DNA of 61,827 nucleotides, the filler included, from Sanchytrium tribonematis (Eukaryota), in the NCBI GenBank assembly GCA_018985235.1. It is 12 parts of 12 records of this genome, joined end to end, with 100 filler letters (N's around TTAATTAATTAA, not from the genome) between each part and the next. Parts side by side here need not be neighbours in the genome. Positions count along the whole stretch, not along the records: positions 1 to 22,354 come from JADGIG010000083.1; positions 22,455 to 25,991 come from JADGIG010000851.1; positions 26,092 to 29,621 come from JADGIG010000852.1; positions 29,722 to 33,244 come from JADGIG010000853.1; positions 33,345 to 36,861 come from JADGIG010000854.1; positions 36,962 to 40,471 come from JADGIG010000855.1; positions 40,572 to 44,059 come from JADGIG010000856.1; positions 44,160 to 47,640 come from JADGIG010000857.1; 4 more parts are not named here. One strand, 5' to 3'. The notes under the pieces are model-generated. The model ran no database searches. It saw only the letters and a list, made by a program, of their open reading frames with translations, and was not told where the DNA came from. How positions within the stretch are numbered: position 1 is the first letter of the stretch; each line of letters starts with the position of its first letter. Below, in pieces: positions 1,930-61,827 of the stretch. The translations under genes and the position numbers were made by a program.

Positions 1930-4096
1930 ATGAGTGTGTCAATATTGACAATCAATCTAGTTCGAAAAGAAATTCCTGTTGAGGCAGAATTGCGAAAATC
2001 ATATTACTCAATACTGCCTAATATTGATAAGCTTGCCAATTTGAATTTAAATAAGAAAGAATGTCTCAGTGGCTTACTTTATTCCATTTTATTGGACTTT
2101 AATTCGATTTCTTGGAATTCTTTTCTTCATTTTTACAAATTTTATTCCCCAGAGAAGCCGCTTCTGAAATTAGCTCAACATTTCGCCGATCTATCCTCTA
2201 CAAGCAAGTCAAATTTATTGAATAGTTTGTACGAATTGGGAAAATTAAATTTCAAGATTGATAAAATAGTAATATATTTAGTGAGGTATTTTGACGAAAA
2301 TGATGTGTTTTCTTTCTTGCTCAACGTCCGGCTTCACTTGAGTGACCAGAAAGTAGTTGCCGTTTTACTTTTCAATTTAATCAAAAAAAGACACAGCCTC
2401 CAAATTAATGAAAACGATCGAGCCCAACTCAATTCATGGATTTCCAATCTGGAAAACGATCCACAAATCTTAAAATATTTAGGACGTGAATTGTATAGTC
2501 TAACAAACATTTTTTCTACAAATCATCTCAAAGAATTCACATTTGAGGAGCAAAGAAAATCAATTGATCCAATATTTTACTCTTTGCAAATGCCAATTTT
2601 TCTTGAAGATAAAATTAAATTTTTACTTTTTCGGGTACAATTAAATGGTGGTACTATGCACTTGCAGTGGTTGGTAACCCAATTCAATAAGTTGAGTTTA
2701 GATTTGTTAAAATGTGCAATTAGGTACATTTGCTGCTACATACATCCACCCAATGATATCTTGGCTAGCCCTGTGATTCAGAGGTATATATTTTTTACCG
2801 AGCTGCATGATAATCTGATTTCTTCCCAACAGCGACATGTTTTAAATGATTCCATAATTTATGACTTGTTTTTCTACAAATCAGGGGAAATAATGAATAT
2901 CGAACCGGTAGCTTTGATGCTATTTCCAGGAGACTTAGCAAAGATTGAAATTGCAAATGAATTGTGGAAAACATTGAATTCGGCTATTGCGAAATTGACT
3001 TTGAATCAAGCCGGTAGTTTAAATGCCTTAAAACTGGCTCTTACGGAAGTATTGCAATTACAGGTTATATCTCAAAGTCGTTTAGAACGCAGTTTGACTC
3101 TCATGAAAAAGAAATGGGGTGTTTTGTACAAAAATATAATCAACAACAATATCAAGATCACAAATCAGATTGATTTGGAGGAGGATGATCTTTATGAGAC
3201 AAAAAGTGAAAAAGCCACCCCTCTGAATAGTCTTCAAAATGATGAAAACTCAAGTAAGGCTAGAGTTTTTATGAACGCAATGAACAAAATAGTGTCGTCA
3301 GAATCAAAACTGAATCAAGAAACAAAAGAATTGCACTTGTTTGATATGTTTAAAAAGTTCATTTTGTCTGTTGATGAATCCACCATTAAATCCTGCTTCG
3401 ATGATATCAACTTTAATTTAAAGTCATTTAAAAAGCCGCCACATATCTTTTACAAGGCATTTTTAGAAGAAGAAATTAAAAATCCTCAACTTGAAATCAT
3501 ATTCAATTCATTTTCATTCGCAAGCGCCGATTATTGTCTTTATAGAATAGCTAACTTAAACGTTGCAGATTTCATAAGTCGCACACCTATTGCATTAATT
3601 TTGAAATCTCTTCATTATCTTTTAGATGAAAAGCCCTTGAATATGTTCAATGACTTTTTATTAGCCTTAATAGTAAATGGAGCAAAAATTAGGTGGAATT
3701 TAATTGAACAATTTGTCAATCCTTTACTGAACTGTAAAATTAGAAATTACGTGTATTGTGAGAATTTGCCTTTGTTTACATCAGAGTTCAATATTAGTTT
3801 TTTAAAAAATGATTCCGCATCTAAATATATGATTTGTGACTTGGTATTTGCAGAAATCAAGCTTCTTCGAGCATTTAATTATCTGATCAAGTGCGTCAAA
3901 TTTTGGTTGGAATGTACCGGTAGTTTTATTTAAATTAGACATTGTTTTCGAATCGAAGTTACTGGAATGCATTTTTGATATAAATCTCAGCCAAGATTTC
4001 GTGAATCAGTTAAATGCGGTCCTGGAATCTCACCCTGATAAAAAGTACAAGATTCAACATATAATATTACAATTTCGTAAATTCGAAGCAAATTAG
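1930..4096 (+). CDS. INTS3: Integrator subunit 3 / SOSS-A-like protein, 2 exons
   Basis: IRYICCYIHPPNDILAS and YDLFFYKSGEIMNIEP match INTS3 conserved blocks; intron 3920-3938 extends the frame to TAG at 4096. Confidence 0.75.
3920..3938 (+). other. 19-nt spliceosomal intron
   Basis: GTAGTTTTATTTAAATTAG; removal opens about 52 further codons filling the gap to the next gene. Confidence 0.75.
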
Positions 4097-4116
4097 GTTA
4101 ATATATAACAAGCAAT

Positions 4117-5654
4117 TTATTTGTGTAAAGTATTGGGATTTGCCAACATTTTAACAGTTCGAATTGATTCAACCCAAGTGTCAGCGTTCCCACTTTGATC
4201 TATCAAATGGTATGTTCTTTTGGGGGTATTGACCATGAAAGTGGTTTTGTTTTTAGTTTCGGGTTCAATGTCATCTGTCCAGGGTATCAATCCTTTTAAA
4301 GTCAATTCTCCAATTGTTTTTTGCTCCACCTCTCCACTATCGTCATCACTGTCACTTTTTTCTTTTTTCATATCCATTGTAGATTTCGAATTTTTATTTG
4401 TGGTTGATTCATTGATTATTTTCTTTGAATCTGCTTTCATTATCAATGCATTGCCTTTAAAATACATAAATCTGGGCAAATCAGTTAGAACAAACCACCT
4501 CTTTCTGGGAACAAGACCCTTTTTCTTATACAAAACACCCATTTTAATAATCCTTTCTTCTGGTTTCAAAAAGTCAGAAACTAACAGGACAGATTGATCG
4601 GATATATTAGAGAGCAATTTAGAAGGGTCAGTTTCGGTGGTATTAACCGAGGCTGTACTCCTCATTGAGGTACGCGACAAAGTACTAAAAGACGTTCGAC
4701 TTTTTCTTTTTGGTGGATCTAAATTCGTACCAATAGAGTCTTCATTTTCAACGTCATCCACTTTCAAAGGATGAAAAGGGGGCGGCGTCTTTAAATAAAG
4801 TTCTTTCCATTTGATGCTTCTGAAAAAGTCCATCGTGACCAATTCTTCATACCCAGCTCTATTTGGGGGCTCTAGAACTATTAATTTTGACGTCACTTGC
4901 TTTACTTTATCAGGAAAATCTAGAGGAAGTGTATATTGAAGCTTAGAAACTTTTTGGAAAGTTTGGTAATCGTTTGGGCCCTTAAAGGGAGGTTTTTGAG
5001 TAATCATCTGTATCATTATGCATCCAATAGCCCAAAAATCGCTTTTCTCGGATGCTTCTTTTTCACCTAAAACCTCTGGACTACATCAAAAATAATTTAC
5101 CTTACATACTCTGCTGTGCCAACAAAAGATTTAGTCCTTGTGCCGTCTGTACCGTCTTCTTCCTTTCTATCTAAAATTTTAGCTGTACCGTAGTCCGTCA
5201 GCTTTATGTGATTACTTGTGGAAAGTAAAATATTTTCCGGCTTTATATCTCTATGCAAAATTTTCATACTATGCAGGTAGTTGACACCTTCAATCAATTC
5301 TGCTGCATAAAATTGAACAGCATCCAGTGAGAAAGTACCTTCTTTGATACTTTTGAGTAAATCTCCTGGACATAACTCTAAACAAAAATACAAATTATTT
5401 TGATCTTGAAATGTATAAAACAATTTGACTATAAATGGGTGATCGCACATATTCAGTACATCCTTTTCTATGGTTACATATTTGACCTTGCGCTCTTTGA
5501 TTATATGTCTCTTATCAAGTACCTTTATAGCAAATTGTTTTCCAGTTGCTTTTTCTTTAGCGAGAAATACTGTGGAATAGCTGCCCTCTCCAAGAACGTC
5601 GTTCATCTCGAAGTCTTCCTGAGTTTTTTTCGCTTCATCTTTAGTAACTGACAT
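4117..5654 (-). CDS. PDK1: 3-phosphoinositide-dependent kinase PDK1/Pkh/Ksg1 (kinase + PH domain), 2 exons
   Basis: GEGSYSTV, HRDIKPEN, spliced SFVGTAEYVSPE, C-terminal PH domain (RKRWFVLTDLPR). Confidence 0.93.
5081..5100 (-). other. 20-nt spliceosomal intron
   Basis: GTAAATTATTTTTGATGTAG; removal restores GTAEYVSPEVL. Confidence 0.93.
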
Positions 5655-5733: not shown

Positions 5734-6930
5734 TTATTTAAATAATTTCGACACACTCAAATTTTGTTCGCTATCTTTCTTCATAATCTTGGTAACAGCC
5801 ATTTCGAAATCTTCTTGAGAAACATGAATTCTTCTCTCTCTTAAGGCGTACATACCGGCTTCTGTACAAACACCTTTAACTTCTGCTCCACTGCAGCCTG
5901 TCATTAAACCAGCAACTTTTCTGAGGTTAATGCCTCTTTGCAAGTTCATTTTACGCGAGTGGATTTTTAAAATGTCTAGTCTAGCGTCCTCAGAAGGAGG
6001 AGGAAATTCAATTTTACGATCGATTCTGCCAGGTCTTAAAAGCGCAGAGTCGAGGATATCAATACCTAAGTAAATAAACAATAACGATTTGTTGCCATTA
6101 TAATCTTGATATTTTTTGTTTGTTCAAACCCATCCAGCTGATTTAGGAGCTCTAACATAGTTCTTTGCACTTCACTATCACCACTTCCATCTCCGCGGCT
6201 AGATCCAATGCTGTCTATTTCATCCATGAAAATAATTGAGGGCGCATGTTCTCTAGCCATGATAAATAACTCTCTTACCATTCTTGAACCTTCACCAATA
6301 TATTTCTGCACTAGTTCACTTCCACTAACTCTGATAAATCGACAATCTGTGTGATGTGCAACAGCTCTTGCAAGTAATGTCTAAATAAATATAAAATACT
6401 TTTCCGGTACCGGGAGGTCCATAAAGCAGTACACCTTTTGGTTGCTCTATACCTAAAGCTTCAAACAATTCGGGATGTTTAATAGGAAGTTCAATCACTT
6501 CTTTAATTTCTTTAATTTGTTGATCAAGACCGCCTATCATATCGTAAGATGCATCTGGCACTTTTTCTACCATCATGAGAGAAACAAGAGGATCTATTTT
6601 GTTGGGCAATATTTTATATAAGGAATAATTGTCATGTTTCAATGCAACTCTTGAGCTTGGGGCTAATTGTTTTCTGTCAACATCATCGTCAATCGTGACA
6701 AGATACTTACCATCAGGCTGTACTTTGATTAGAGCTTTATCATTTAAAATCTTGATGAACTCTCCTATATGTGCTGGAGGAGACTGCAAATGCTGATATT
6801 CTTCACCTAATAAGCGGACTTGGATGTTTAATAGGTTTCGTTGAGCTCTCAATCGCGCCAAATTGTTCTTTGCGCTATTAAGATTAAGCTCCAAATGTTG
6901 ATCTTGTCTCTCATAAACATTTGCAAGCAT
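5734..6930 (-). CDS. RPT6: 26S proteasome AAA-ATPase Rpt6, 3 exons
   Basis: Spliced [57 protein letters not shown]. Confidence 0.96.
6066..6085 (-). other. 20-nt spliceosomal intron
   Basis: GTTATTGTTTATTTACTTAG; removal restores ATNRIDILD. Confidence 0.92.
6381..6399 (-). other. 19-nt spliceosomal intron
   Basis: GTATTTTATATTTATTTAG; removal restores Walker A GPPGTGK|TLLAR. Confidence 0.95.
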
Positions 6931-9547: not shown

Positions 9548-9961
9548 ATGGTCAATGCAAAAAAATCAAAATTGGAACTTCTGATACGGCACAAAGTAGA
9601 ATTACACTTAGATGACCACAGAATACTCATAGGGCAATTACTGGCATACGACAGACACATGAATGTTGTTATCGAAGATTGTGAAGAGATACGAAAAAAA
9701 CAACGCAGACCTTTGGGATTGTTGGTTGTTCGTGGAGAACATGTTCAATCAGTACAATCAATCGCTCCTCCAGCAGCAGTTAAACAAAAACGAACTGCAA
9801 TGAATATTAGTGGTATTGTACCTGTAAAAGATATGGCTGACAGACCTCCTCCGATTCAAGGTCATTTAAATGCGCCAGTTGCACCTGCCTCCGGTGCTCC
9901 CAAGATGCCGCCAGTAATAGTAGGTGCCAATGCACCGAAAGCTCCCATGGCGCCAAAATAA
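9548..9961 (+). CDS. SMB1: snRNP core protein SmB
   Basis: IGQLLAYDRHMNVVIEDCEE and RPLGLLVVRGEHV Sm motifs; Pro-rich tail. Confidence 0.9.
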   Translation: MVNAKKSKLELLIRHKVELHLDDHRILIGQLLAYDRHMNVVIEDCEEIRKKQRRPLGLLVVRGEHVQSVQSIAPPAAVKQKRTAMNISGIVPVKDMADRPPPIQGHLNAPVAPASGAPKMPPVIVGANAPKAPMAPK

Positions 9962-11687: not shown

Positions 11688-14394
11688 TTATTTGTCAAAT
11701 GGATTGTCAATTGACTCTGGAACTGGTCTCTCTTTCGTTGGATCTGTCAGTTCAAATGCTTTAGCACTTTGGTGGGCTTTTAACTCAAACAGTTCTTCTT
11801 TAGTTCCTGGCTGCAAGTCTTCCAATAATTGAATTCCGATGAGACCACTCACAGATTTCAAAGGTTGATATCTACTATTTTTGGCAATTTCGACATGTTT
11901 GACCTGTTGGGGAGTAACTCGGTGTAAGTTTTCCAGCTCAGAAAATTCAGGTTCATCCTCAACAATTTGAGATACCTCTTCGTTGTCTTCTTCAATGGGT
12001 TGGTCCTATATAAGTAGTGAATACGACTTCCATTGGGGAATTTACATTTGACTCTCTTCGCTTTTTGTCTTCTCTTGCCTTGTGTTTCTGGCTAACGGAT
12101 AACACTGCTGTCTTAATTTTATGATCGTCCTTTTTAGTTGGTTCTTTTGAACTAGGAGGATAATCGAACAAAGACGGTTTACATTTTGAAAGAATCTTAA
12201 ATTTTGGTATCTGAAGGTCTTTGTTTAAACCTATAAAAGCTGTTGGTGTAAAAGATAAAGAGAGAAACATAGTCAAGGGGTACCAATACCAATATTGCGT
12301 AAAGAGAGCCATTCCAACAATAGCAGACATATTCGAGTGGCCTGATCTTGACTGAAGACTAATGGTTGTATTTCTACCACCAGCATTTAAGATACCTTGT
12401 GCTAAAACTGCTCCAAATTTAGCCATGCTATTTTCACGCTTATCATTAGTGATTTTTTCGAAAAGCTTGACAACCTCCTCGTATTTTGGATTCTTTGAGT
12501 TTTGCTGCATCAAAATCATCCCTAAAGCAATTAAGGCGCCCTGTCTCACAAAATCAATTGAATCTTTTAATATTGGCATCAAAAGATCAATTGCTTTTTC
12601 GCTTCCGGTACCTGCGCATACAATACCAAGTGCAAGACACGATCCATAACGAACATTAGGATTATAACTTTCGGCCAATAATGATATGACTTCTGGAAAT
12701 GATTCTGGCTGCTTAAACATAAGAAAGCCTAAAGCAATGACAGCTGCCCTTCTAACGTCATCATTGACATCACTAACAGCAATGTGCAGTAGATGCTTGA
12801 CTGCCTTATTATCTGCAGTGCCAGCGTAAGCCATTCCAGTTGTAAAGGCACCAGAATATCTAAGAATTGGGTCCTTATCTTTTAGTAATTTCTCTATTGT
12901 TGCATCAGCAGCTTGCTCTCTACCATACATTATAAGTGCAATACCAACTGCAATACCTCTAATAATTTTTTCGTGTTGAGTGTCATGTGCATACTGAATA
13001 AGTTCATCTACTATTTTCTCCTTTCCACATCCAAGCATTAGCAAACCTATTGCTATAGCTGCAGCTTCACCTGCAATGGCAGAATCGCTAAATAATACCG
13101 ATCTTAAATCATTATAAACGCCTTCATCATTTGAGGCCATAAGTGCAAGACCTAAACCAAGGCAAGCACCATGCTGTAAAATATCATTCTGAGACTTTAA
13201 TTCTTTTCTAATTATTTCGCTAACATCTTTTCCGTGTTTAGCATGAATCAATCCGAGTGCGTAAAGTGATCCTGCTTCGCTATGAGACTGTGTGCTCACA
13301 CTTTCTTGTGGCAAATAAGGCTCTAAAATTTTAAGAGAGTTGCCAATTTGACCTTTATGTATCACACCAAGTGCGGCTGTGGCTGTAAATTTTGACCAAT
13401 TATTAGCTCTTGACAGCCATTCCAGGTTTTCCCTTAAAAATTGGTCATAAGTAGTTCCTGCAAACATAAATGCATTAGAAACACTCAAAGCGGTGTGGTG
13501 AATGGAATTTCTTGCGTCTAGAGAATCTTTTACGTTCTTGAGTATTTGTAAATCTCCTTTGTTGTTTCTGTACATAAATTCCAAGTAAAAAGACAAGCTC
13601 TTCTTCCCATTAAGAATATCTTTTAAGCTAGTGAAGGGAGATTCGATATCCATATCTGATTCGGGTACTGGTATCTCTTGCATCACTTTGTTAAGCAAAA
13701 ACTGGGAAGCTTCTTGTTCTAAGTCGAACGCGATTTGATATGCAGTAAGCAGGTCGTTTTCTTCAATTAATTTTATCAAAAGCTTGGATAATTCTAATGG
13801 TTTGTCTAAATGTAAATAACATTGAACTGCAGGAAAATAATCCTTGTTTGCCACAAATTCTAGCACAAGAAGCTCAAGAATCTTGTTTCTAAAATTGATA
13901 TCAGAGTCAAGTAATATTTCGAATATAATACCAAGAAACTCTTTGCCTTTTTCCACACAGCGTTTAACTAAAGATAAATTCTGAGCTTGAACAGCCATTC
14001 CTACTACTAACTCGACATATCCACTCTTAAAAGCATCGGCAATGATTTTCTCGATCATTTCGTTGAGAAGAGGATCTATCGATTGCTCGGTTTTACTCTG
14101 GGCAACAAAAGTCTCAACTGCGTTTTGAATGACGCTTTTGACATATAAGGACTGTTCATTAAGATTGGATTTGAGAGCATATTTCAACACTAGGTCAGGA
14201 ACTCCCAAATGAAAATAGATCTTTGAAATTAAGAGGGCCAAGTCATCATTTTTCGACGAAAGATACATCTTTTCTAAATTTGGAAGATGATCAGCCAATT
14301 CACTCCAGTATTGGTCTACCTGAGAATGTAACTCTTGAAGCGCGAATGGTGCGCAAGAATTTTCATTCAAAAGTGCAACTAGTCCAGCTGACAT
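11688..14394 (-). CDS. RPN2: 26S proteasome regulatory subunit Rpn2, 2 exons
   Basis: NWSKFTATAALGVIHKG, LHIAVSDVNDDVRRAAV, FTQYWYWYPL; the second exon, missed by the ORF track, encodes ELENLHRVTPQQ. Confidence 0.96.
12006..12024 (-). other. 19-nt spliceosomal intron
   Basis: GTATTCACTACTTATATAG; joins to an open exon of about 105 codons with the Rpn2 C-terminal motif. Confidence 0.9.
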
Positions 14395-14450: not shown

Positions 14451-16746
14451 TTACAATTTTGTGACTAGACCATCCGCAACAAAAACTTTGTTGTTATCCA
14501 TCAAAGCATTCAAATAGAACGAAATTTCGTCCCTTGAAAAATCACTCAAGTCGCTGTATGAACGATCTTTCAAATTTTTAACGGCCTCAAAAAAATCACT
14601 CTCTGGCATTTGCTCGCTATCTGCAAGAAAAGTGCTAATCATCTCAGTGAAAATCTCCAATCTAAATAAGTTAAGTATACCTTTCATATGATTCGGCATC
14701 TTCCGGGGCAGCAGCACCAGTAGAAGGCTTGTCTTTGCTTCTGGTTTTGTGAACAATTTCTTTTTCTTGTTCATCCAAATCCATTGCATCATTATCATCA
14801 TCGTTGTCATCACCACTATCAATATCGTCATCATCTGAAGCAGCCTGCTCTTGTTTTACCTTTTTAGTGGGCCTATGTTTTACTACTTCCTTAAAAAGTG
14901 ATAATTTTAGCATTTTAAATGCAGCCTCGGCATCCTTCTTATTTATAGTGTTCGAAAGTCTAGCTTTTGCAAAAGCTGTCGATAAACGAATCATAGTTTC
15001 TAAAGAACGAACAGTAACTGGTAATGTTTTCTTTTGGTTATAATTTGAATTTCTTAGATTTCCATATTTTTGAGTTATATATCTTGCAGCTTCATCCGAA
15101 AGAATCGGTTTAATGACTGAGCGAGCGTACCAAATATACTTCTTTAAAAATTCGCTGGACAAAACACGTACACCATTGACAGTAATAATGGATTCAACAA
15201 TTTCATCTTGGTTGTCTTTTGGCTCCATCATATAGTTCAAAGGCGTATCTTCCATCACCTGGCCCACTTCGTATTGGTCTGGGACAAATCTTCTGTTCTT
15301 TAAAACATGCGTTGCCAAATGGCTATCATGGACCTCATTAGGGCGATCAAGCATGATAAATAGCAAATCAAATCGACTCAGCAAACTATCAGGCAAATGT
15401 ATGTTTCGAGCAGGATCAATGCTTTCATCATAAAGCCCATATACAGGATTGGCAGCGGCAATCATTGAACAACGTGCATTTAAGGTGACGCATATTCCAG
15501 CTTTAGCAATTGTAATCGACTGTTGTTCCATCACTTCATGTATCGCTACTCTGTCAATATCGCTCATTTTGTCAAATTCGTCTAATAAAACATGTCCTTG
15601 ATCAGCTAAGACGCAAGCACCAGCCTCCAACGTTTTCTCACCGCTTTCCTGATCGTGCGATACCGCAGCTGTAAGACCAACTCCAGAGGCTCCTCTACCA
15701 GTGGTTGACACGCTCAATGGGGCAACTTTAGTTAGATATCGAAGCAATTGAGATTTTCCCACACTGGGATCCCCTACCATAAGTACGTTAATTGATCCTC
15801 TTAATCTTCCACCCTGGTTTAAATGTTTTTCAACTCCTCCTAATAAGCTCAAAAGCAAACCTTTTTTGACAATTTCATTTCCATAGATCGAAGGAGCAAT
15901 ACTTCTACTTAGCAATTCAACTACGTTTTTTTCTTCAGCAACCAATCGCTTCATTTCACTGATCTCGTCGGGCGACACTTTGGTAGAACTGGCAGTCTTA
16001 TTTAACAAATTGATATGCACCGCTACAATAGCCTTTTTAAAATTCCCCATCTTACCACCCATTGTGCGGTAGAATCCTACCACTTGAATTCTGTCACCAG
16101 GTTTTACACTATCACAGAGATGTCCAGATAACATCACATCGATAGACCTTGGAAGTTGACCAGCTGGCGTTAATTCCGGAATTTCTTGCACTATTAAAAA
16201 TTGGTGGTTTTCATATTGTGATAATCCCGGTTGCAGTTCCAACGCATCCCCAAATTTGTCATGCGTTGGAAGTGTAGTTGAAGTGGCAACTTCGTCATTG
16301 ATTCCATTCCCATCGTTGTACAATTTTTCAACTCTATTATTGTTAGAAGATATCTGCAAGCTTTTTTTCAACTTTGGCTTGGTTAATGCAGATTTGGTGA
16401 CAATGCAATCAACACAAACCATTTTGTTCAGTAAATTGCTACGTAATCCACGAGGTGTGACATGATGATCGGCCATTATTCCCATTAAGCCTACCATTTT
16501 CTTTTCGACTCCATAATTTGATGCAGATTCGTCCACTGCTCTACATAAGGATGGGTAGTATAAGACGGGTTGATTTAAAATCCCGTCCACAAGAACGTGA
16601 TTGTACTGTCTTAAATGTTCAAATGAGATAACTAAGGACTTTAGGTCTTTGTTTTGCAAACGGTCATTGTAAGTTCCCATTGGAAATGGTTGTTCTAAAA
16701 ATCTCACAAATTCCTGGTAAATTACATCACTTGCTTGTTCTTGCAT
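14451..16746 (-). CDS. MCM3: Replication licensing factor Mcm3, 2 exons
   Basis: PAGQLPRSIDV, GDPSVGKSQLLR, DEFDKMSDIDRVAIHEVMEQQ, LPDSLLSRFDL; C-terminal exon via intron 14662-14680. Confidence 0.95.
14662..14680 (-). other. 19-nt spliceosomal intron
   Basis: GTATACTTAACTTATTTAG; removal gives YER|LEIFTEM ending NNKVFVADGLV. Confidence 0.88.
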
Positions 16747-16857
16747 GTCTCAAGATGGCGACAACGAGGATAAAAAAATATACAAGATTTTTTATTTTTT
16801 AACAGCTAATATAAATTTAGACAATATAATTGCGCAACCACACACCAAAAAGAATAA

Positions 16858-17197: not shown

Positions 17198-18055
17198 TCA
17201 GTCCATAATATTCAGCTCTCCAACCAGAATTTTTCCATCAAGAGAACAACTGATTAGGTTGCTGTCACTTATAAGCACCTGGGTCACGGAATCTACATGT
17301 CCGCCCAATGTATATATTAACTCCTGAGAGACTATTTCAAAAATATTCACATTTCCGACTGCGGTTCCACAAGCAACATAATGTCCACCATCACTTAAAT
17401 ACGGCCTAATAGAATTAAGTGTCAAGTTATTCATTGGATTATCGAAAACTGTTAAAAGCTTACAGCTTCCGCTATTTTCAACATTCCACAACTTAATGGT
17501 ATTATCAAGACTAGAACTGACCAGATGATTGTTGTTAAAGTGCAAGCCCAATATAGCATTATTATGTCCCACAGAATCAATTGATTTAAGCTGCCTTACA
17601 TCGTAAATTGTGATTTTACCGCTGGCATCACCAGCATAAATAAATTTGTCAAATTCTAGAGCCAAGATTTGAGAATTTGTTTTGATTTTATGTTCAAATG
17701 TTTTTGAACGCGAATCCCACAAAATCAAATTTTTATCATTTCCGCCACTTGCAATTAAATGGTCTTGACTTGCACAACCAAGTACAAAATTTTCATGGCC
17801 CTTGAAAGTTCGGATATGGTCACCTTCTATAGCCCAAAGTTTAAGCGTCATATCGGCCGAACTAGTCAATACTCTAGTTTCAATGTCATTTACAAAGCAA
17901 ATATCAGTTATTGCGTTATGATGAAATGTTTCTGCGAAAAAGATTTTTTGTTGATAATCAAACCAAAGAATTCCTCCGTTTTGCCTGCCAGACACCATTA
18001 CATCCCCATTATGTGCCATAGCGGTGACTGGATTTTGCAAGTCTATGGAATACAT
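17198..18055 (-). CDS. WD40-repeat protein (possibly U5 snRNP 40K-like)
   Basis: Multiple GH...WD repeats; LIYTLGGHVDSV near the C-terminus. Confidence 0.8.
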   Translation of the reverse strand: MYSIDLQNPVTAMAHNGDVMVSGRQNGGILWFDYQQKIFFAETFHHNAITDICFVNDIETRVLTSSADMTLKLWAIEGDHIRTFKGHENFVLGCASQDHLIASGGNDKNLILWDSRSKTFEHKIKTNSQILALEFDKFIYAGDASGKITIYDVRQLKSIDSVGHNNAILGLHFNNNHLVSSSLDNTIKLWNVENSGSCKLLTVFDNPMNNLTLNSIRPYLSDGGHYVACGTAVGNVNIFEIVSQELIYTLGGHVDSVTQVLISDSNLISCSLDGKILVGELNIMD

Positions 18056-18381: not shown

Positions 18382-19741
18382 ATGGGAAAACAGATATTGA
18401 TAACCGCGATTGCAACAATCGGTGGATTTGTTTTTGGTAGTGATATTGGTCTTGTGAGTAAGATCCAAACATATCATTCCTTTAAAAAATTATTTCATTT
18501 ATCGACTGCTCAATTGGGTTTAATGGTGGCAATATTTTTATTAGGGTGTATGTTGTCCAGTTTAGGTTCGTCTTATCTGGCGGAAGCTTATGGTAGGAAG
18601 AAGTCAATCATAATTGGTGCTATTATTTTTACAGTTGGTATTGTGACTCAAATGTCTGCAGTCTCTGGCGTGAATGTTTTGATGTTAGGAAGGTTTTTTA
18701 CAGGTTTGGCTGTTGGAATTTTATCGACTATTGTGCCCATGTATTTATCCGAAGTGTCTGATCCAGAACAGCGAGGAATGTTGGTTAGTTGTCAGCAATT
18801 GGCAATTACTTTAGGAATTTTGGTTTCATTTCTTGCTGCTATGTGGACCGAGAATGTTAGTTTTTTTGGCATGGATGATTGGCAATCTGCAATTAGTTTG
18901 CAACTTGTCCCGGCTGCACTTCTTTTTGGTGGTATGTTGACACTGCCCGCTAGTCCAAGATGGCTTTTGTCCAAGCGACGACATGAAGATGCTAAAATCG
19001 CACTCTCAAAATTGAGAGGTACGAATTTCGCAAATGTAGAAGGGGAATATTATAAATTGAAATCTGACTCAGAAGCAGAAACTGAGCAGCTTTCCTGGGG
19101 TGCTGCTTTAAGTCAGTACAGAAGCAGAATCCTTATTGGAATCGTCATTCAAATGTTTCAACAGATATCTGGTATAAATGGCTTAATGTATTACAGCACT
19201 AAAATGTATACTCAGTTGCTGCCCGACTATGTTGACACTCTAGCTGCAGCTCAAAATATTTTGAACGTCGTTGCAACAATTCCTGCTTTATTTTTAGTCG
19301 ATAGACTTGGTCGTCGATCTCTGTTATTGGCAGGTAGTGCTGGTTGTGCTATTGGACTATTTATGACAGCAACTTCCATGTTGCTCCCGACACCTTATCC
19401 AGTTGTCGCAGTTATAGGAATATTTATTTTTGTTATTAATTTTGCTTATGCTATTGGCCCGCTTCCATGGGTATTTTATTTTAATTTAGGTTGTGTGCTC
19501 CGAAATTTTTCCGTCCTGCATTCGTTCAAAAGCAGTCGCAGCTAGTACAGCCTCGAACTGGATTTTTAATTTGATTGTTTCCTTTTCAGCTCCTATTTTA
19601 CTTGACTCTATCGGGCCTTACACATTTTATATTTTTAGCGGTGCTTGTTTAATTATGTACTTTTGGGTTCTAAGAACACTTCCGGAAACTAAAGGACTTA
19701 CGTTGGAACAAGTTGATAAATTATTATCAAAAGGGAAATAA
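18382..19741 (+). CDS. MFS sugar porter, 2 exons
   Basis: GGFVFGSDIG, YGRKKS, PASPRWL, QQISGIN, DRLGRR, spliced GPLPW|VVCSEIFP, PETKGLTLE. Confidence 0.95.
19471..19489 (+). other. 19-nt spliceosomal intron
   Basis: GTATTTTATTTTAATTTAG; removal restores PLPWVVCSEIFP. Confidence 0.93.
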
Positions 19742-21031
19742 ATTTTTAATTCTTTTATTGATTTTTCTATTATTTCTCGCAGTTCATGATAGGACACAAT
19801 TAGTAAATTCCTTTCGTCTCTTGACATTAGCAAAATTTTATCCATGCTCCCAGAATCAAGCTAAATGAAGCAACATTACCTTGTTCAAATGAAAAAGTAG
19901 ATGATAAACGTCTAAAACTGGTTGCCCATGAGCGTCAACTTGGTGAAATAGGAAGTCGCGAAACAATTTTAGCAAATAATTTCCGCCATTCTCAGCCCAT
20001 CTCTCTGAATTCTTGTAATTAGATCTTTCATTTATAACACCTAATTTGAAGAGCACATTTGCAACTCTTTTACTCTCTTCTAACTTTGCAATCTGATCTT
20101 GATGGTTATTTATAATATTCGCTTGCAAATTTATTGTGCTGTACATATATGGGGCCGCTATATTGAGAATTTCGTCAATGCTGCGAAAATTGCCTTTAAC
20201 ACATTTACCTACAATATCCTTAATCCAAGTTTCTTTAATTTTATTTAACATTTCTGGTATATATTCAAGAAAGGGAATACTTTCATTAATAATCTGTAAA
20301 ATCATGAATCCAAATTGTATTAAATCATTTCTTTGCATTATATCAGTTGGTTTGTCAAAAATAATAGGGCCAATGCCGATTCCTCCTATTTTTATTAAAC
20401 CACTTTTGGTAGCAAATATTTTATATGGGTGGAGACAGCCTCCAAAATAAAGTTTTTTGCTGTGTACTTCTTTTATGCAACATAAAATTTGAAGTATAAT
20501 TTGTTGTATATGTATTTTTCTGGAAAATAAAGAATAGCCTTCGCAGAATTCATAAACCATATTCAAAGTGTAGGTATTATTGTTTATAGTAGTAAATCCT
20601 TCTTTAAGTTCTAAGCAAAAGCCACTTATTTTTGTACAATAAATTTGTGATTTGGCTACTCTTTCACCAATTGACTTTTCAATTTTGAGCTTATGGATAG
20701 CACATATTGATCCATTTACATAACTGTAATCTACTGCTGTGGGAGTTGTAAAGACTCCATTATCTTCTTCATAGCTATAAATCGTTTGACCGTAATGACC
20801 TACTTCAAATAAGACGGTCTCAAAATCAGTCAGATCATTGGAGTAATCATATTGTATCTCTTTCATAGGTGTCCGTAATGTAGGGATTATATTTTCGTCT
20901 ACATTCTGATACATTTTAAAGTGCTCAAATTTTGTTTCAAAATAATTTAATATTGGCTTCATTTGATTTAGCGAGTGTGGAAATTTCGATAGTATTATCC
21001 CACTGGGGAAGTATTTTAAAGAGCCCACCAT
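19627..21031 (-). CDS. PAN3: PAN3 deadenylase subunit (pseudokinase + knob), 2 exons
   Basis: KLGVINER...WAENGGNYLLKLFRDFLFHQVD; spliced HLNK|LDSG...LMSRDE..LLIVSY. Confidence 0.88.
19861..19879 (-). other. 19-nt spliceosomal intron
   Basis: GTAATGTTGCTTCATTTAG; removal restores LNKLDSG. Confidence 0.92.
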
Positions 21032-22454: not shown

Positions 22455-23507
22455 TGGACGATGGATCATTTTTTGACTTTGGAAATGGAGAAACTCAAGA
22501 AAATAGATCAGCATGTACTTGGTGCCGTGTCTGGGGGTGTTGATTCGACTGTAGCAGCTGTATTAATGAGCAAAGCATTGGGTGATAAATTTCACGCCAT
22601 CTTCGTAGACAATGGTTTATTGCGTAAAAACGAGGTCAATCAAGTCAAATTGATATTTGAACATGCTAAAATCAATCTTACTGTCGTAGATGCTCAAAAG
22701 CAATTTCTAGATTTGCTTCAAAATGTGTCTGACCCTGAAAAGAAGCGTAAATTAATTGGAAATGAATTCATCAGAGTATTTGAGAAAGAGGCAGAACGTA
22801 TCACTCAATCCATCCAACAAGAGAATGGAAATGTCAAATATCTTTTACAGGGCACGCTTTACCCGGATGTCATTGAAAGTATTTCTTACAAGGGGCCCTC
22901 CGCGACCATCAAATCGCATCACAATGTCGGTGGGCTGTTAAAAGACATGAAATTGCAATTGATAGAGCCATTGCGTGAGCTGTTTAAAGGTAAGTTTGAT
23001 TTCAAGATGCATGTAACTTTTGTTCTTCAGCAATCCTGACGACAATTTAGTACTGAAATAATCACTCATGTAGATGAAGTACGCGCATTAGGAGAAGTAT
23101 TAGGTCTCCCCAAATCCACCATATATCGCCATCCCTTCCCTGGCCCTGGATTAGCCATCAGATGCCTTGGAAATGTCAATCCTGCCCAATTAGAAATACT
23201 GAGAAATGCAGATGATATTTTCATCCAAGAGCTCCATAAGAATGACCTCTATTCGACCACGGCTCAGGCATTTTGCGTATTACTCCCAGTTTCAAGTGTG
23301 GGTGTCATGGGTGACGTGCGCACGTACGAGCAAACCATTTGTCTCCGCGCTGTTAAAACCACAGATTACATGACTGCAGAAGTCTCATTTTTTGATCCCC
23401 AATTTCTCACAAAAGTGATGAATCGCATTATAAATGAAGTAGATGGCGTCAATCGGGTTGTTTTTGATATTACAAGCAAACCGCCAGGCACCATTGAGTG
23501 GGAATAA
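22455..23507 (+). CDS. GUA1: GMP synthase (5'-partial), intron 22990-23073
   Basis: [28 protein letters not shown], spliced [29 protein letters not shown]. Confidence 0.96.
22990..23073 (+). other. 84-nt spliceosomal intron
   Basis: GTAAGT...CTCATGTAG; removal restores LRELFKDEVRALG. Confidence 0.92.
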
Positions 23508-24552: not shown

Positions 24553-24813
24553 ATTCGGCGTATTTAAATAGAATTACATCAAGTGAATATTCAAGAGACC
24601 CAAAATGACACTGGTGTTTTCCTGACACTGATTGGATGTCATATTCATGGACTTTGGTGATTCCCCGAATGCCACCATTTAAGACAAATTCACACTGTAT
24701 GTTAAATAAAAGATGTTTCGGAATGAAGTACCAATTTGTACAAATTAACCCTTGATGTTTTGATTCGCCAAAATATATTTGGTTAATGTTACTTGCAATT
24801 TCCCCTAGTAAAC

Positions 24814-26091: not shown

Positions 26092-27313
26092 AAGAAATTT
26101 ACCTTTGGATTTGCAATTTTATTTATATTTGCATTACATGGACTGAATGCAATCAAAATATTGTTTCTCGTAAGCACTAATTATCTAATCACTATAAAAT
26201 ACGGAAAGTCTGGAACCGTGGTACTTGGGCTTTGGATATGGCATGTTTTCATGATTCTATTTATTGAAAGGATAGATTTTAAAGTATCTTTCGAAGGAAT
26301 TATTTCTCAATGGATTGTATATTATAAATTTAATATTCTAAGAATGATTTCTTTCACAATGGATTATTACTGGTCCCACGATTATGCAGCCATTGATAGG
26401 CGAATCAGTGATAAAAAAGCAAGAATAGAAACACCTTGTAAAGAATCTAATTATAAACCTTATCTAAGATATATTTTGTACCCTCCGCTTTATTTAGCAG
26501 GCCCCATTATAACTTTTAATGATTTTATTCATCAAGAAAATAAAATTACACAATCTTCCATTACACGACATATTAAGCCGCTTTTGACGTACCTAGTTCG
26601 ATTCGTCGCATTGGTGTTATTCATGGAACTTTTCTCTAGGTTTGCATACGTCAATGCAATTACAAAAGATGGAAAAAGACACGGATTTCATAGTTATACG
26701 AGTATTCAACTTTGCATGATAGGATATTTGGCTTTAATGCATATTTGGCTCAAATTAATGATTCTTTGGAGGTTTTTTAGACTGTGGGCCATGTTGGATG
26801 GTATAGAAACAGAAGAAAATATGACTAAATGTATGAGTAATCACTATTCTGCAATGAATTTTTGGAAACACTGGCACAAGTCTTTCAACAAATGGATGGT
26901 CAGATATCTTTACATTCCACTAGGTGGAAACAAGACCTATTTGTGGAATATTTGGCTAGTATTCAGTTTTGTGGCGATATGGCATGACATAGAGCTGAAA
27001 TTGCTAATTTGGGGTTGGGTTATCGTATTATTTATTTTGCCAGAATACGTTTGTAGGAAAATATTTAAACAATTTAAAGTAATTCAAATTTATATAGAAT
27101 CATCCATATTACGATGATTTAGCAGCTGTAGGAGGTGTCATAAATATATGCTTGATGATGACTGGAAATTTAGTAGGATATGCTTTGGGCGTAGACGGCA
27201 CAAAGATGCTACTAACTGATATACTATCAAGCCCATTCCAATTTGCTTATGTATTATTTTTGCTATTTTTTGCTGTTCATTTTATGTTTTTTATCGAAAA
27301 GAAATTTAAATAA
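26092..27313 (+). CDS. GUP1: MBOAT acyltransferase Gup1/HHAT-like (5'-partial), 2 exons seen
   Basis: LRMISFTMDYYW, YPPLYLAGPIITFNDF, FWKHWHKSFN, FVAIWHD; second exon INICLMMTGNLVGYALGVDG. Confidence 0.92.
27079..27097 (+). other. 19-nt spliceosomal intron
   Basis: GTAATTCAAATTTATATAG; joins to the Gup1 C-terminal motif. Confidence 0.9.
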
Positions 27314-34638: not shown

Positions 34639-34713
34639 TTCACCCTGTTTCTCCTTTAAAAAATAGTGATTTCAAATTTCACACGTGATCTCATGACAAA
34701 TGATTTATATCAT

Positions 34714-35486
34714 TTATTGACAATGTAGAAAAGGATGTAATAATCCCATCGTTGCTGTTGGTCGATTTTCTGCACTTTTTTCCAAATAATCTAAAAAATT
34801 AAAAAATTGCAACAATTCTTTTTTGATTCTGTTGTCAAATGTCTCAAATCTAGATTTCCAAACTTTTTAATATACAATGTATTCAAGGTTGCACCAATAT
34901 TGTAAATATCCACTAGACTATTTTCAAAAGATGGACAATGTTTATAATAGAGATAGCATTCAATTTCGGGTGGAAAATAATATTCTTCGTATTGGATGTT
35001 GTGGCTTTTTAATGCTCTAGTAGCGCCTCCAAGTCCAACTAATCTAAATTTAGGAGCATCCTCTTGGATGTCCACAATTATGTAATTTGGATTGATATTT
35101 CGATGATAAAGGCCTTTTCCATGCAAATATTCTACGGCATTTAATAAATCAAGTGCAACTTGCTTTAATATAGACAAAAAATACTTTATATCTGTAATTC
35201 CACTTAAATACTTCGCAATAATCAAAGGGCTTACCGCCATAACTTCCATATTCAAATAGTAGCATCTATATGCTTTATGGTATTCGCAAGAAATAAATTC
35301 GGATCCTTTTACAATGTTACGATGTTCAATCGGGGATGTAATTACATGTTCATTAATCATATTATAAATTTCAGGATCTTCTTTTTCTCCATTTGGTACA
35401 CAATGCTCTCTTTGTAAACGGAATCCAATATTTGTGATATCCACATTGTACAAATTAATTGCAAATAATGGCAAATACCAAAACAT
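34714..35486 (-). pseudogene. Pseudokinase paralog with a frameshift near the 3' end
   Basis: HRNINPNY (no catalytic Asp), GLG in place of DFG; the C-terminal ENRPTATMGLLHPFL lies in another frame after an A6 run near 34820. Confidence 0.65.
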
Positions 35487-35574
35487 AGTTGTGTTTCCTC
35501 CTATATTAATTCACACAAATCATGGCATGTCACATGAAGTTTCATGGTGCACATTGTCATCAGCAAATTAATAT

Positions 35575-46152: not shown

Positions 46153-46364
46153 CAGTAGTGGTGTCTTTTTAAATAAACTGTGTAGGTTAGTCAGCTCCAT
46201 TCTCAGCTTAGTGAATCCGTGAATCATTGTGACTCGCTTGGATCGTATTCTAGATATACATTCAGGCTCCAGTGTCTAATTTACCTGGTCTAGATTTTGC
46301 TGGAATATACAAGCTCATAATGGCTAAATTTAAATCTCACAATTACAAATATTTTTTGATACAA

Positions 46365-47339
46365 ATGGGTCGCAAATCATTAAAGTCTCAAAAAACTCCA
46401 GCAACTCCAATTAAGAAACATTCCATCATATATAGTCCACAAACACCATCCCCTAATACCCAACATTCTCCTATTCACTTTAAATTTCTCAACAATGATC
46501 CACCATCTCCATTTACAGACAATGAAATCGACAGTCCTTTAAAATCTCTTCCATTTGATTACTCTAAACCAACAGATATTAAAATTTCTTCTCCAGAAAA
46601 GAATGGTAACATTGATCATGTTATTATTAACCATCAACTCTTTGTGGTAAAATCTTGCTGTGTTTCTGAAATGAAATTATTTAAATCTTTAAATCATTTT
46701 ACAGATATTTCACAGCTAACAAACACAAATCACAATCTAATACCTACAATTAATCATTCTCAATACATATTAATGCCAAGCTGTTACCCACTCGATCAAT
46801 TATTGTTACTGTACGATTCCGAGATACCCAATGACTTGCTAATTCAATGGAGCAGAGAATTAATCAACGGTATACATTATTTACATTCCAACAAGATTAT
46901 ACATGCAGATATCAAACCGGAAAATTGTTTAATTTATGATCCAAATATACCAAAATCGCACAATTCCCAATTTAATCAAATTGATAATGAAGTCAAGCAT
47001 TTGAACAGGCTCTATATTTGTGACTTGTCAATATCTCAATCATATCCATTCACAAATACAGATTATGGAGATGCAAAATACTACGCGCCAGAAAGAATTG
47101 TGAAACTGGATTACAAATCAGACGTGTTCAGCTACGGTTTATGCGTTTATGAAATGATGGAATTAATAGATATACCTCAATTTGGAGATCAGTTATACTA
47201 TGAACTGAGGCACGATGTATTTAAATTTACTTGCGAGTTGGAAATATTGCAAAAGTTGGTCATTGGTTGTTGCAGGAGAGATGAAAATGAACGTATGAGT
47301 AGTCTGAATGCTCTGGAATTATTACAAAATGAGGAATAA
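46365..47339 (+). CDS. Wee1/Myt1-like protein kinase
   Basis: SP/TP-rich N-terminus, IHADIKPEN, GDAKYYAPE, SDVFSYG, IPQFGDQLYYELRH. Confidence 0.7.
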   Translation: MGRKSLKSQKTPATPIKKHSIIYSPQTPSPNTQHSPIHFKFLNNDPPSPFTDNEIDSPLKSLPFDYSKPTDIKISSPEKNGNIDHVIINHQLFVVKSCCVSEMKLFKSLNHFTDISQLTNTNHNLIPTINHSQYILMPSCYPLDQLLLLYDSEIPNDLLIQWSRELINGIHYLHSNKIIHADIKPENCLIYDPNIPKSHNSQFNQIDNEVKHLNRLYICDLSISQSYPFTNTDYGDAKYYAPERIVKLDYKSDVFSYGLCVYEMMELIDIPQFGDQLYYELRHDVFKFTCELEILQKLVIGCCRRDENERMSSLNALELLQNEE

Positions 47340-56602: not shown

Positions 56603-57421
56603 ATGAGCAAATTATTTTTAGGTCGATTGCCTGATGATGTAATGGAAGAAGATATCAGAGATCTCTTTGGAAAATATGGTGAAATAACCCAAATTACCTT
56701 AAAGCGAAATTATGGCTTTTTGAATTATGCTGATGACAAAAGTGGCGAGGAAGCTATCAAAAGTTTAGATGGCTATACTCTTGGAAACGATCGCATTTCT
56801 GTTGAAGCTGCAAGAGGTGAAAGGGACCGTGATAGCAGAGAATGTTTTAAATGTCACAAAATAGGACATATGGCTAGATTCTGTCCAGAGAATGATTTTG
56901 CTGACAGAAGAGGAGGATATCGGGATGACCGAAGAGGCGGTTATGATGACAGACGTGGATACGATGATCGACGAGGCGGTTATGATGATCGAAGGGGTGG
57001 ATATGATCGAGACGATAGAAGAGGTGGATACGATCGCGATGACCGTCGTGGAGGGTATGTAGATGAGAGACGTGGTGGTTATAGAGAAGAGAGACGCGGA
57101 GGTTATGAAAGAAGACCGATGACTTGTTATAATTGCCAGCAAGAAGGTCACAAAGCATATGAATGCACGGAACCAAGAAGAGATCGAGCAAGAAGTCGTA
57201 GCCCAATGCCACGCGATGATTACCGATCCGGTGATCGTGGATATGGACGTAGGGATGACCGTGGCCCCCCTCGAGATAATTATCGCCGAGAAGAAAGGGG
57301 ACGACCTGAGAGACGCGAAGAGCCCCAAGAGCCTCCGAGACAAAGAACTCCTTCACCTACTTGGGATAAACCTGCGAACTTGGATCGTGTTGACTCAAAA
57401 GATGAGGTTACTGCTCAATAA
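56603..57421 (+). CDS. SR-like RNA-binding protein: RRM, two CCHC knuckles and RGG/RS region
   Basis: KLFLGRLP and RNYGFL RNP motifs; CFKCHKIGHMARFC; CYNCQQEGHKAYEC; RSRSP. Confidence 0.88.
   Translation: MSKLFLGRLPDDVMEEDIRDLFGKYGEITQITLKRNYGFLNYADDKSGEEAIKSLDGYTLGNDRISVEAARGERDRDSRECFKCHKIGHMARFCPENDFADRRGGYRDDRRGGYDDRRGYDDRRGGYDDRRGGYDRDDRRGGYDRDDRRGGYVDERRGGYREERRGGYERRPMTCYNCQQEGHKAYECTEPRRDRARSRSPMPRDDYRSGDRGYGRRDDRGPPRDNYRREERGRPERREEPQEPPRQRTPSPTWDKPANLDRVDSKDEVTAQ
56903..57110 (+). repeat. Coding tandem repeats (D/E)RRGGY
   Basis: About nine imperfect DDRRGGY units within the SR-like gene. Confidence 0.85.
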
Positions 57422-59236: not shown

Positions 59237-60157
59237 TTATTTTATTATTGGATGCTCAGCAGATGTTTTTGCTGATGGTGATGCTTTCGAGATTGAACTG
59301 GCTCTATCGGTGGTACCAGGTTTTAAATGATCGGTGCCAATTTCCTTAAATTTTTCAGTCTCAATTGAGAGTGGATCGAAATTTGATACTTTTGAAAAGT
59401 CTGGCTGGCTTGCCACAGTATCCAGAAAATTCTGAATTGATCTTTGTCTGTGGAATGGTTGTAATTCTGAAATTTTCTCCAGATTTTCAGAATGGATTTC
59501 AAATTCGTTTCTCAGTTCTTGCGCTTTCTCTATGCTTATTTCTGGTTTTTTATACCAAATATTAGTTGCTTTATGTGCTTCTTTCATCAATTCGTTTATG
59601 ACCATATCAACTTTTTGCTTTTCCCACTGGTCTTCAGTTGTCATTTCCAATGCCACCAATTGTTCAAGAATTTGGTTGGTTAATTTTTTCGACCACTTGA
59701 GGCCAAAGTTATGTATGTCATTGATTTTTGGAGCCACATATTCTTTATGTTTTGTGTCAATGTAACCCTTCCACCCATGAACATCTCGAACCAGGGTTTG
59801 TATCACATGACTTTCAGGTTGTTTCCAAATATAGTTATGCTCAGGTTTTCTCGAAATCATGCCTTCAATTTTAATGACAAAACCTAAATAATCTAAATAT
59901 TTTTCTGTCATCGCCACTTTCTTTTTCAAATCTTTTGCTAGATTGCCCTGTTCAATCTGTTTTGCTGCATTATCAATAACCTTATTCTTTTTAGATGAAG
60001 GATCCAAGGTGGCTGCAGCTCTTCTTTCGTCAGCTAAATTTTGAGATGTCTGGAATGCTGAAGTACCCGGACCACTGAATAACTGCGTTGAACCATCACC
60101 AATTTGGTCGATTGCCAAACTCATTGGTGCTGCGATTAATAAATTATTGAAAATCAT
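59237..60157 (-). CDS. Hypothetical putative secreted helical protein
   Basis: MIFNNLLIA|AP leader; 306 aa; ends AAA-TAA-A. Confidence 0.65.
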   Translation of the reverse strand: MIFNNLLIAAPMSLAIDQIGDGSTQLFSGPGTSAFQTSQNLADERRAAATLDPSSKKNKVIDNAAKQIEQGNLAKDLKKKVAMTEKYLDYLGFVIKIEGMISRKPEHNYIWKQPESHVIQTLVRDVHGWKGYIDTKHKEYVAPKINDIHNFGLKWSKKLTNQILEQLVALEMTTEDQWEKQKVDMVINELMKEAHKATNIWYKKPEISIEKAQELRNEFEIHSENLEKISELQPFHRQRSIQNFLDTVASQPDFSKVSNFDPLSIETEKFKEIGTDHLKPGTTDRASSISKASPSAKTSAEHPIIK

Positions 60158-60326
60158 CTTGATAATATATTGTCATTTGGCTGCTTTTATAGCATCTATT
60201 AGGCAAGACAGCCCTATGATTCCTAACTCATTCAATCAAATTTACTTTATTGTCTTGGAAATCTGAAAATAGTCCTAGTAATCCTACTCAAATCTAGCAA
60301 ACCCATCTGCAATCACAAATCATTTA

Positions 60327-61827
60327 TTAAGTTGTCACATTACTATATATAATAGTTTCCTTCTTTTTATGTCTCTTAAAGGGTGATTTACTCATAACAA
60401 CCCCAAGTACAATAGAATCCAAACACATTTTAAATAAATTAGTGAGTGAGAAATCTATAGTAAATGGCTGTGGATTCCATTTATATGTATTAGATTCAGA
60501 TGGTTCTGTAGTGGATAATTGAAATGCATCATCAATTTGAGATAAATAGGACATTTCACTTGACATTGATGGATTTGCACTGGTGATTATTTGAACTAAA
60601 TGAATCAGAAATACGAGTTGTTATAGGTTTATCAGGCATAATCTGAGTGATTGAGGGCATCTCCATTGATTCTACAGTCGATTCCGTCAAAATAAACGCA
60701 TCTGTTTGATTTAATGACAAATTGGAACTAGTTGAGAACGTGCCATCATTAATAGTGATACTATCTGGGAATGAGTCACTAGTTTCATTTAATGCTAATA
60801 TTTTACAGCTATTCTTTCGATTATAATAAGTGCCATTCAAATTGCATTGATTTTGAAATGTTTTACCAAACACTCCAGGTGCCATTGGATTATTGCTCAA
60901 ATCGCAATTCAGTCCCAATAAAGTCGTATTATAAATCATGATATCCACAATTTGATTATTCTGTAAATACAACTGAGATGGTTTGCTAAATGATAAATTG
61001 CCACTTAACCAATTATCATTAAAATTATAATTGGATCCAGTCAATGTATAGTTTATACATCCACTTAAATGATTATGTGATAAATCAAGTGTGGGTACAG
61101 ATTGGAGGGAAATGGGGATACCACCAACAAATAAATTATTAGAAATATTCAAAGAAATGCGATTTGTACTAAATTGCCAATTTGGGATATTTCCATTAAG
61201 ATTGTTGCTAGACAAATCAACGGTGATCAAAGTAGATGGTAAATCATAAGAAATATTACCAGAAATGCCATTGTGATCTAAATTGATATTTTTCACGATT
61301 TTTGGCAATGATTTTGGATAATTTTGAAATAAATTGAAACTCAAAAACAAATCATAGATAGTCGCATATCCCAAGTCAATATCACCATACATTTGATTAT
61401 GTGACAAATCTAATAACTGATACCTTTGCGTATTTAATTGTGGAATCTTCCCAGTGAAGAAATTCCAAGATACATCCAAAGTATACAATTTTGAGCTAAT
61501 GTTGAGATTTGTGATGTTTCCACTCAATTGATTATGTCCAACACTCAGAGAATACATCGGAGCAGGCAAATTAACTGGAATATTGCCATAAATCATATTA
61601 AACCCCAAATAAACATACCAAATAAAATTGGTTAAAATTGGAAAACTCGTGTTAATTTGGTTATAACTCAAATCAAGAATAATCATGGCATTCTGGATTG
61701 GAGGGATTGGACCATATATCATATTGTTCACTACTTCGATCTTCTTTAAGGTGCTTGGAAATGCCAATGGCAAAGAATCATTAATCAAATTATCTGAAAT
61801 CTCCAATGCTATTAAATTTGGAGGTAA
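60327..61827 (-). CDS. LRR surface / receptor-like protein (5'-partial), 2 exons seen
   Basis: LxxLDLSxNxLxGxIP repeats, Cys cap, S/T stalk; the spliced exon adds a hydrophobic segment and basic tail. Confidence 0.85.
60596..60614 (-). other. 19-nt spliceosomal intron
   Basis: GTATTTCTGATTCATTTAG; joins ORF 60556-61806 in frame to ORF 60327-60566. Confidence 0.85.

Follow-up and report, generated by a model that had tools for sequence, protein, structure and literature searches.

Putative 19- and 20-nt spliceosomal introns with a branch-like adenosine at a fixed distance from the 3' end in the sanchytrid fungus Sanchytrium tribonematis

Results

The stretch of Sanchytrium tribonematis DNA analysed here, called the window throughout, is 61,827 nt long and consists of 12 contigs of assembly GCA_018985235.1 joined by N spacers, with a GC fraction of 0.30-0.37. 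Coding sequence covers nearly the whole of it, and over positions 1-22354 the genes abut or overlap, leaving almost no intergenic space. Set into these genes are ten GT-AG segments of 19-20 nt, which a preliminary description of this DNA had put forward as spliceosomal introns. All ten lie on the coding strand at the coordinates and with the lengths it had given, three of them on the plus strand (3920, 19471 and 27079) and the other seven on the minus strand. Each of the ten removals leaves exactly one open frame, the spliced models are free of internal stops in every case, and the five invariant protein motifs quoted in that description are all restored, with the intron splitting the S codon of AEYV-S-PE and the R codon of ATN-R-ID. 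The accompanying statement that the introns measure only 19-20 nt does not stand, as an 84-nt intron in the GMP synthase gene (22990..23073, plus strand, phase 1) had been missed.

The proteasomal gene RPT6 carries two of the segments: intron 1 (6381..6399, minus strand, 19 nt, phase 0), which lies 3' of the Walker A motif and was identified by a deletion test, and intron 2 (6066..6085, minus strand, 20 nt, phase 1), which has the sole GTT donor and was identified by the same test together with the proteins of relatives. A second 20-nt intron (5081..5100, minus strand, phase 2) interrupts a gene for a kinase with a PH domain, which we take to be PDK1-like, and was placed by continuity of the Pkinase model. 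The remaining seven are all 19 nt long. The intron at 3920..3938 (plus strand, phase 1), situated towards the 3' end of a gene resembling INTS3, was recognized from breaks in the orthologues and from the frame. In RPN2 (12006..12024, minus strand, phase 0) the RPN2_C domain lies on both sides and the exact ends were set by the motif, while in MCM3 (14662..14680, minus strand, phase 2) the site follows from the length fit to a homologue and from breaks in relatives. Continuity of the Sugar_tr and Pan3_PK models places the introns of a sugar transporter gene (19471..19489, plus strand, phase 0) and of PAN3 (19861..19879, minus strand, phase 0). The last two, in an MBOAT-family gene (27079..27097, plus strand, phase 0) and in a leucine-rich repeat (LRR) gene (60596..60614, minus strand, phase 1), were assigned from the motif and an open frame only, the latter being the weakest of the ten.

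All eleven introns have GT...AG termini and restore the frame when removed; none of the ten tiny introns is a multiple of three in length, and several contain in-frame stops. Introns are sparse, with 11 over roughly 55.7 kb of rough gene models, or about 0.2 per coding kb, and some 10 of these 55 models are interrupted. Blastocladiella, by comparison, has been credited with 19,375 introns in 10,031 genes (PMC9730499). Within their coding sequences nine of the eleven introns lie past the midpoint towards the 3' end (binomial p 0.03) and seven past 80% of the length, with three of these genes cut by contig ends.

When the ten tiny introns are aligned at their 3' ends, three positions show no variation: -8 (T), -6 (A) and -3 (T). 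A pyrimidine occupies -9 in all ten and -5 in nine, in agreement with WCTRAY, the consensus that PMC2483917 tabulates for the branch site. The intron ends in TAG in all ten, the donor is GTA(A/T)TT-like with GTA in nine, A+T content is about 80%, and there is no space for a polypyrimidine tract. All ten hold a branch-like (A)YTNA(Y) box with its A at -6, and with the 84-mer counted in, the -6 A and the -8 T are present in 11 of 11. When the intron interiors were shuffled 200,000 times, three invariant columns never arose, and an invariant A column at any position arose 6 times. Across the window, strings of the GT..AG type that fit T-8/A-6/Y-3 number 22 of 280 at 19 nt and 8 of 275 at 20 nt, the ten introns included. 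The strict 19-nt pattern occurs seven times against 1.0 expected, an excess that is circular because the pattern was derived from these introns. Counted from the 5' end, the -6 A falls on base 14 of each of the eight 19-mers, on base 79 of the 84-mer and on base 15 of both 20-mers, which have G or T at base 14; since its base number shifts with length, it appears anchored to the 3' end. U12-type (minor) introns have a long invariant donor and branch consensus. Donor positions 4-9 vary among the introns described here, and a U12-type assignment was rejected.

The preliminary description had cautioned that introns of 18 or 21 nt without stops would be invisible in its analysis. This caveat is answered in part: the strict motif has no match in the window at either 18 nt or 21 nt, and among the looser matches (10 of 18 nt and 11 of 21 nt) none lies on the coding strand with GTA, TAG, high A+T and a harmless removal. 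Removing the loose match at 58645, read by eye, would create a stop. A motif-free scan that joins open reading frames (ORFs) gave a modest peak at 19 nt, with 13 of 583 candidates compared to 1-8 for every other length between 8 and 35 nt, although its specificity is too low for use alone. On the minus strand at 60223-60245, a 23-nt GTA...TAG string with T-8 and A-6 stands upstream of the ORF at 59240-60172 and beside a repeated stretch; it could be an intron in a 5' untranslated region or a chance match.

Homology pins the junctions of six of the ten tiny introns, and those of two more in part. For RPT6, every possible deletion near the site was scored against homologues over a fixed interval. 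Of 975 deletions, the 19-nt GT-AG cut of intron 1 came first with all 30 homologues tried, out of 101 usable ones; for intron 2, the 20-nt cut led 745 deletions with 19 of 20. With two hand-picked references, the intron 2 cut was not first among all deletions, 44- and 47-nt cuts lacking GT-AG ends ranking higher in one case; among GT-AG cuts it was top or tied with both. Pfam model positions continue over the junctions of the kinase (Pkinase 2-164/165-263), the sugar transporter (Sugar_tr 2-374/373-451) and PAN3 (Pan3_PK 1-101/101-138), with an overlap of at most one position. In MCM3, 19 nt is the best length in comparison with the homologue P0004, and the last exon matches WH_MCM3_C. RPN2_C matches flank the RPN2 site at model positions 1-65 and 94-159, leaving a gap of about 29. 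For the INTS3-like gene, no homologue of the last exon was found, and the orthologues break at the same site.

Comparison with relatives places the host. The Mcm3 ORF at 14674-16749 has its closest relatives at 83, 78 and 70% identity, the second being Amoeboradix gromovi, and then drops below 50%. A quick tree (30 of 120 matches used) groups the window protein with the three close relatives at an SH-aLRT of 100. A single A. gromovi contig carries orthologues of MCM3, RPT6 and INTS3, which are grouped in the window too. On the identities, the tree and the shared contig, the host is a sanchytrid and belongs with A. gromovi in Sanchytriomycota, a phylum of algal parasites that is sister to Blastocladiomycota (PMC8371127). 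A scan of metagenomes for Mcm3 (5 of 64 parts, 80 loci) returned no close relative by its identity table, and these loci were not used.

The published sanchytrid proteins are TransDecoder ORFs called on genomic contigs (PMC8371127). Public proteins of these relatives are often unspliced ORFs, and their tails therefore read into the intron. This bears out the expectation that gene predictors would miss such introns: public sets hold truncated read-through products (P0121, P0001, P0003, P0241 and P0244). The Mcm3 tail of A. gromovi is RYLILT*; among lengths of 12-60 nt only 19 closes inside it, and this fit forces T-8, A-6 and T-3. Another Mcm3 protein, P0002, ends in RSFVINLDWSSLQR*; here a 20-nt intron fits with A-6 forced, and the exon would resume with RLELFTE, against RLEIFTE in the window. 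Both P0002 and P0003 break at the MCM3 intron site of the window, whereas P0004 reads through. The Rpt6 proteins of A. gromovi (P0241) and of P0122 break after ATNR, the intron 2 site, where 19 nt is among the lengths that fit. Both read through the intron 1 site, and the position of that intron is not shared by seven other homologues that break near GPPGTGK. In the INTS3 orthologues, P0363 from A. gromovi and P0364, the break falls at the aligned 3920 site, following a Gly-Thr with the same Gly, and 19 nt is one of several lengths that their tails permit. The introns appear to vary among species, RPT6 intron 1 being absent from some relatives and the MCM3 site being read through in another. 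The tiny-intron trait would predate the split from Amoeboradix.

Removal of the 84-nt segment from GMP synthase restores ELFK-DEV. The segment has a full GTAAGT donor, a branch-like A at -6 and an in-frame stop. The proteins of three relatives (P0243, P0244 and P0245) diverge at that very codon, reading Gly-Lys where 111 of 117 homologues have DEV. The tails of P0243 and P0245 are incompatible with 19-20 nt, and that of A. gromovi fits an intron of at least 26 nt. The word TFVLQ is common to the P0243 tail and the read-through of the window, which suggests that the intron sequence is conserved between them. In the deletion test, 84 nt was best or tied against 17 of 30 homologues; 102 or 114 nt won otherwise, probably because longer cuts pull more exon into the fixed interval. 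A GATG and two CTGA words hint that this intron is a candidate host of a box C/D snoRNA; its C/D matches in Rfam are weak (13-15 bits, E about 3-9, far below gathering scores) and it has no stable fold (z +1.5). The idea that the 84-mer folds back to mimic a 19-mer found no support, as 192 of 200 shuffles fold equally well.

Several genes of the window may belong to the splicing machinery. The WD40 protein at 17201-18055 (minus strand) matches U5-40K end to end, and 9548-9958 (plus strand) encodes a protein that combines an LSM domain and a tail rich in proline, presumably SmB-like. The protein at 56603-57418 (plus strand), with an RNA recognition motif (RRM), a zinc knuckle and RRGGYDD repeats, is a candidate splicing factor that we take to be SR-like. 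In A. gromovi, the annotation rows supplied with the genome paper include Prp8, Brr2, a U2AF subunit and cactin, and four of six spliceosome gene names searched have no row among those listed there (supplement of PMC8371127).

Elsewhere in the window, the long plus-strand ORF at 44327-45988 has a best Pfam match of only E 0.09. It holds words resembling reverse-transcriptase motifs. Divergent kinases are among the genes at 24787-25728, 33739-36594, 46254-47336 and 60559-61827, with three in tandem at 33739-36594, and the LRR gene in the 60559-61827 region has many similar contigs in run X1. These kinases and the LRR gene suggest lineage-specific expansions.

Discussion

We regard it as highly probable that the 19-20-nt segments are spliced U2-type introns, and tiny spliceosomal introns are the supported, best reading of them. 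The interpretation is strengthened by the fixed branch-like A and by the breaks common to related species. We propose that these are major-spliceosome introns eroded to near the working minimum. In this model, U1/U6 would read the GTA donor and U2 the adjacent YTNAY branch box, with almost no spacer between the two. A lariat loop of 14-15 nt with a 5-nt tail might then form, and the TAG five bases after the branch A would be taken as the 3' splice site. In the compact genome of a parasite, a bias towards deletion could erode introns to this floor, while an intron with cargo, such as the GMP synthase intron with its candidate snoRNA, would stay long and retain its GTAAGT donor. Erosion to a floor has been discussed as a model of intron length in PMC10245619. 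Since the 84-mer has the same 3' geometry, length would be set by an erosion floor, not a cap, and the rule is likely a ruler from branch to AG rather than a limit on length.

Several points weigh against this interpretation. Splicing itself, and use of the -6 A as the branch, are read from the sequence, and the 3' anchoring of that A depends on two 20-mers and one 84-mer among 11 introns in 62 kb. No homologue was found for the downstream exons at 27079 and 60596, the two tiny introns without homology support, and PDB searches with the exons of the MBOAT-family gene gave no match. For the relatives, intron lengths were obtained by back-translating protein tails and not from DNA: the codons behind the P0002 exon match were the most favourable ones, 13 or 26 nt also fit the Rpt6 tails of P0241 and P0122, 13, 25 or 32 nt fit P0364, and any intron that passes the stop would fit as well. 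Among the spliceosome candidates, the U5-40K match comes from a search in one direction and WDR5-type proteins score similarly, and the Sm-like protein has no PDB match at 1e-12. Searching the whole window against Rfam gave no match at E up to 1, and hence no snRNA.

Two alternatives, both of them rather unlikely in our judgment, concern the details of the class. The first is that the introns are real, inefficiently spliced and mostly retained, as in microsporidia, with placement near the 3' end limiting the damage. Low splicing efficiency has been reported for short microsporidian introns (PMC13644364; PMC6009652), and the skew of the introns towards the 3' side of their genes fits this view, although that bias may partly come from the way the introns were found. 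However, retention would truncate RPT6 within its ATPase domain and the kinase within its catalytic domain, and the tiny introns of nucleomorphs are spliced at high levels (PMC6009652). This proposal concerns efficiency only and is compatible with tiny spliceosomal introns. The second, to which we give similarly little weight, is that the class is real while one or two of its weakly supported members (60596, 27079, 3920 and 12006) are bounded differently or are no introns at all. The absence of a homologue for the downstream exons of the first three speaks for it, as do other possible GT..AG cuts at 3920 (16 or 25 nt) and 12006 (22 nt) and the single strict 19-nt match, approximately, that chance alone would place in the window. 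Against it, all four are 19 nt long, start with GTA, show the -8/-6/-3 pattern and join open frames, and the orthologues break at the 3920 site.

Ribosomal frameshifting through the segments, or their removal by non-spliceosomal cleavage of the Ire1 or tRNA type, appears very improbable. Because 19 is 18+1 and 20 is 21-1, shifting by one base would bring the frame back, and Ire1-type introns are of similar size. Yet homologues lack the extra 6-7 residues that frameshifting would insert at invariant motifs, full removal scores best, and several segments contain in-frame stops; GT-AG ends and a branch-like box are spliceosomal marks. We can practically dismiss assembly or amplification artefacts and pseudogene decay: the assembly is fragmented into 12 joined contigs here and run X1, the only run with this DNA, may be its source, so that the X1 contigs are not independent, but these contigs cross nine of the ten sites with no indel (27079 and 22990 were not among the sites compared; 60596 is crossed by an identical DNA contig), and errors would yield neither GT..AG with a fixed A in ten of ten nor breaks at the same codons elsewhere.

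Spliceosomal introns of comparable size are known from several unrelated eukaryotes. Close analogues occur in heterotrich ciliates, whose introns of 15-16 nt (Stentor coeruleus, PMC9505925; Fabrea salina, PMC9004412) are likewise GT-AG, A+T-rich and of two adjacent lengths. In Stentor the branch A is base 10 of 15 or 11 of 16, leaving a 5-nt tail (PMC9505925); the A at -6, the tail and the intron-poor genome all correspond to our observations, an analogy in working and not a homology. The sanchytrid introns differ in being 4 nt longer, in occurring in a fungus, in their recognizable YTNAY box and in ending only in TAG. Not all of them are tiny either, one long intron having the same 3' geometry, and our sample is 3'-biased in contrast to the 5' bias of Stentor and yeast (PMC9505925). 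Chlorarachniophyte nucleomorphs share the size range (18-21 nt) and a compact genome (PMC10245619, PMC6009652), but hold more than 800 introns in about 300 genes, compared to about 0.2 per kb of coding sequence in the host-independent nucleus of a sanchytrid. Mikrocytos mackini, also a parasite with few introns in a narrow size range (16-17 nt), is a rhizarian whose introns are shorter and highly conserved over their whole sequence (PMC10245619). Metabolic and transporter genes are reported to lack introns there, whereas the sanchytrid sugar transporter and GMP synthase genes have them.

Among fungi and their kin, the microsporidian Encephalitozoon cuniculi is another holomycotan parasite with GT-AG introns (22-76 nt) and a constrained branch motif (PMC3629993). 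Microsporidia are a separate lineage, with longer and more variable introns and a strict consensus in place of the degenerate A+T-rich motifs seen here. In Yarrowia, Trichomonas and Giardia the 3' splice site is similarly fixed to the branch point and there is no polypyrimidine tract; their introns possess a strong box of the ACTAAC type and are longer than the minimum (PMC2483917). Myxobolids and Dicyema (median 22-27 nt) are parasites in which the donor is also reduced to GTa, but their conserved As lie farther from the AG in longer introns, while the sanchytrid A stays at -6 (PMC13644364).

Tiny introns are a known kind of feature, found here in a new lineage, the sanchytrids. Within the literature covered, to which subscription journals do not belong, no paper that we found deals with the introns of sanchytrids. 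In the sanchytrid genome paper (PMC8371127), 'splic' is absent from the main text and 'intron' occurs in the references only; nine of its supplement files were searched, of which one PDF was unreadable and one table incomplete. In PMC10459994, too, 'intron' is confined to the references. A 2026 survey gives ciliates, Microsporidia and Dicyemida as the only earlier exceptions below 30 nt (PMC13644364). With an E. cuniculi minimum of 22 nt (PMC3629993), 19-20 nt lies below every fungal intron size that we met in print and is probably the fungal lower limit. Because sanchytrids are sister to Blastocladiomycota (PMC8371127) and far from ciliates, rhizarians and nucleomorphs, the phylogeny argues for an independent origin, as the preliminary description had suggested; intron lengths in the sister phylum do not enter this argument. 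Overall, we consider it likely that Sanchytriomycota independently evolved the shortest fungal spliceosomal introns, with the geometry of Stentor and the same 3' ruler on long, snoRNA-bearing introns.

If this is true, sanchytrids, being close to model fungi, offer a within-genome test of what sets the minimum length of an intron. They would add a fungal phylum to the few lineages whose introns measure 20 nt or less. The -6 geometry shared with Stentor suggests a structural limit that unrelated spliceosomes have reached repeatedly. Fungal spliceosome structures are well known, and altered or lost residues in sanchytrid branching factors would therefore be directly mappable. It would also follow that public sanchytrid proteomes contain truncated products for intron-bearing genes. 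Given that ORFs were called on genomic contigs and that about one in five or six gene models here bears an intron, gene counts, gene lengths and calls of presence or absence across the phylum may need revision.

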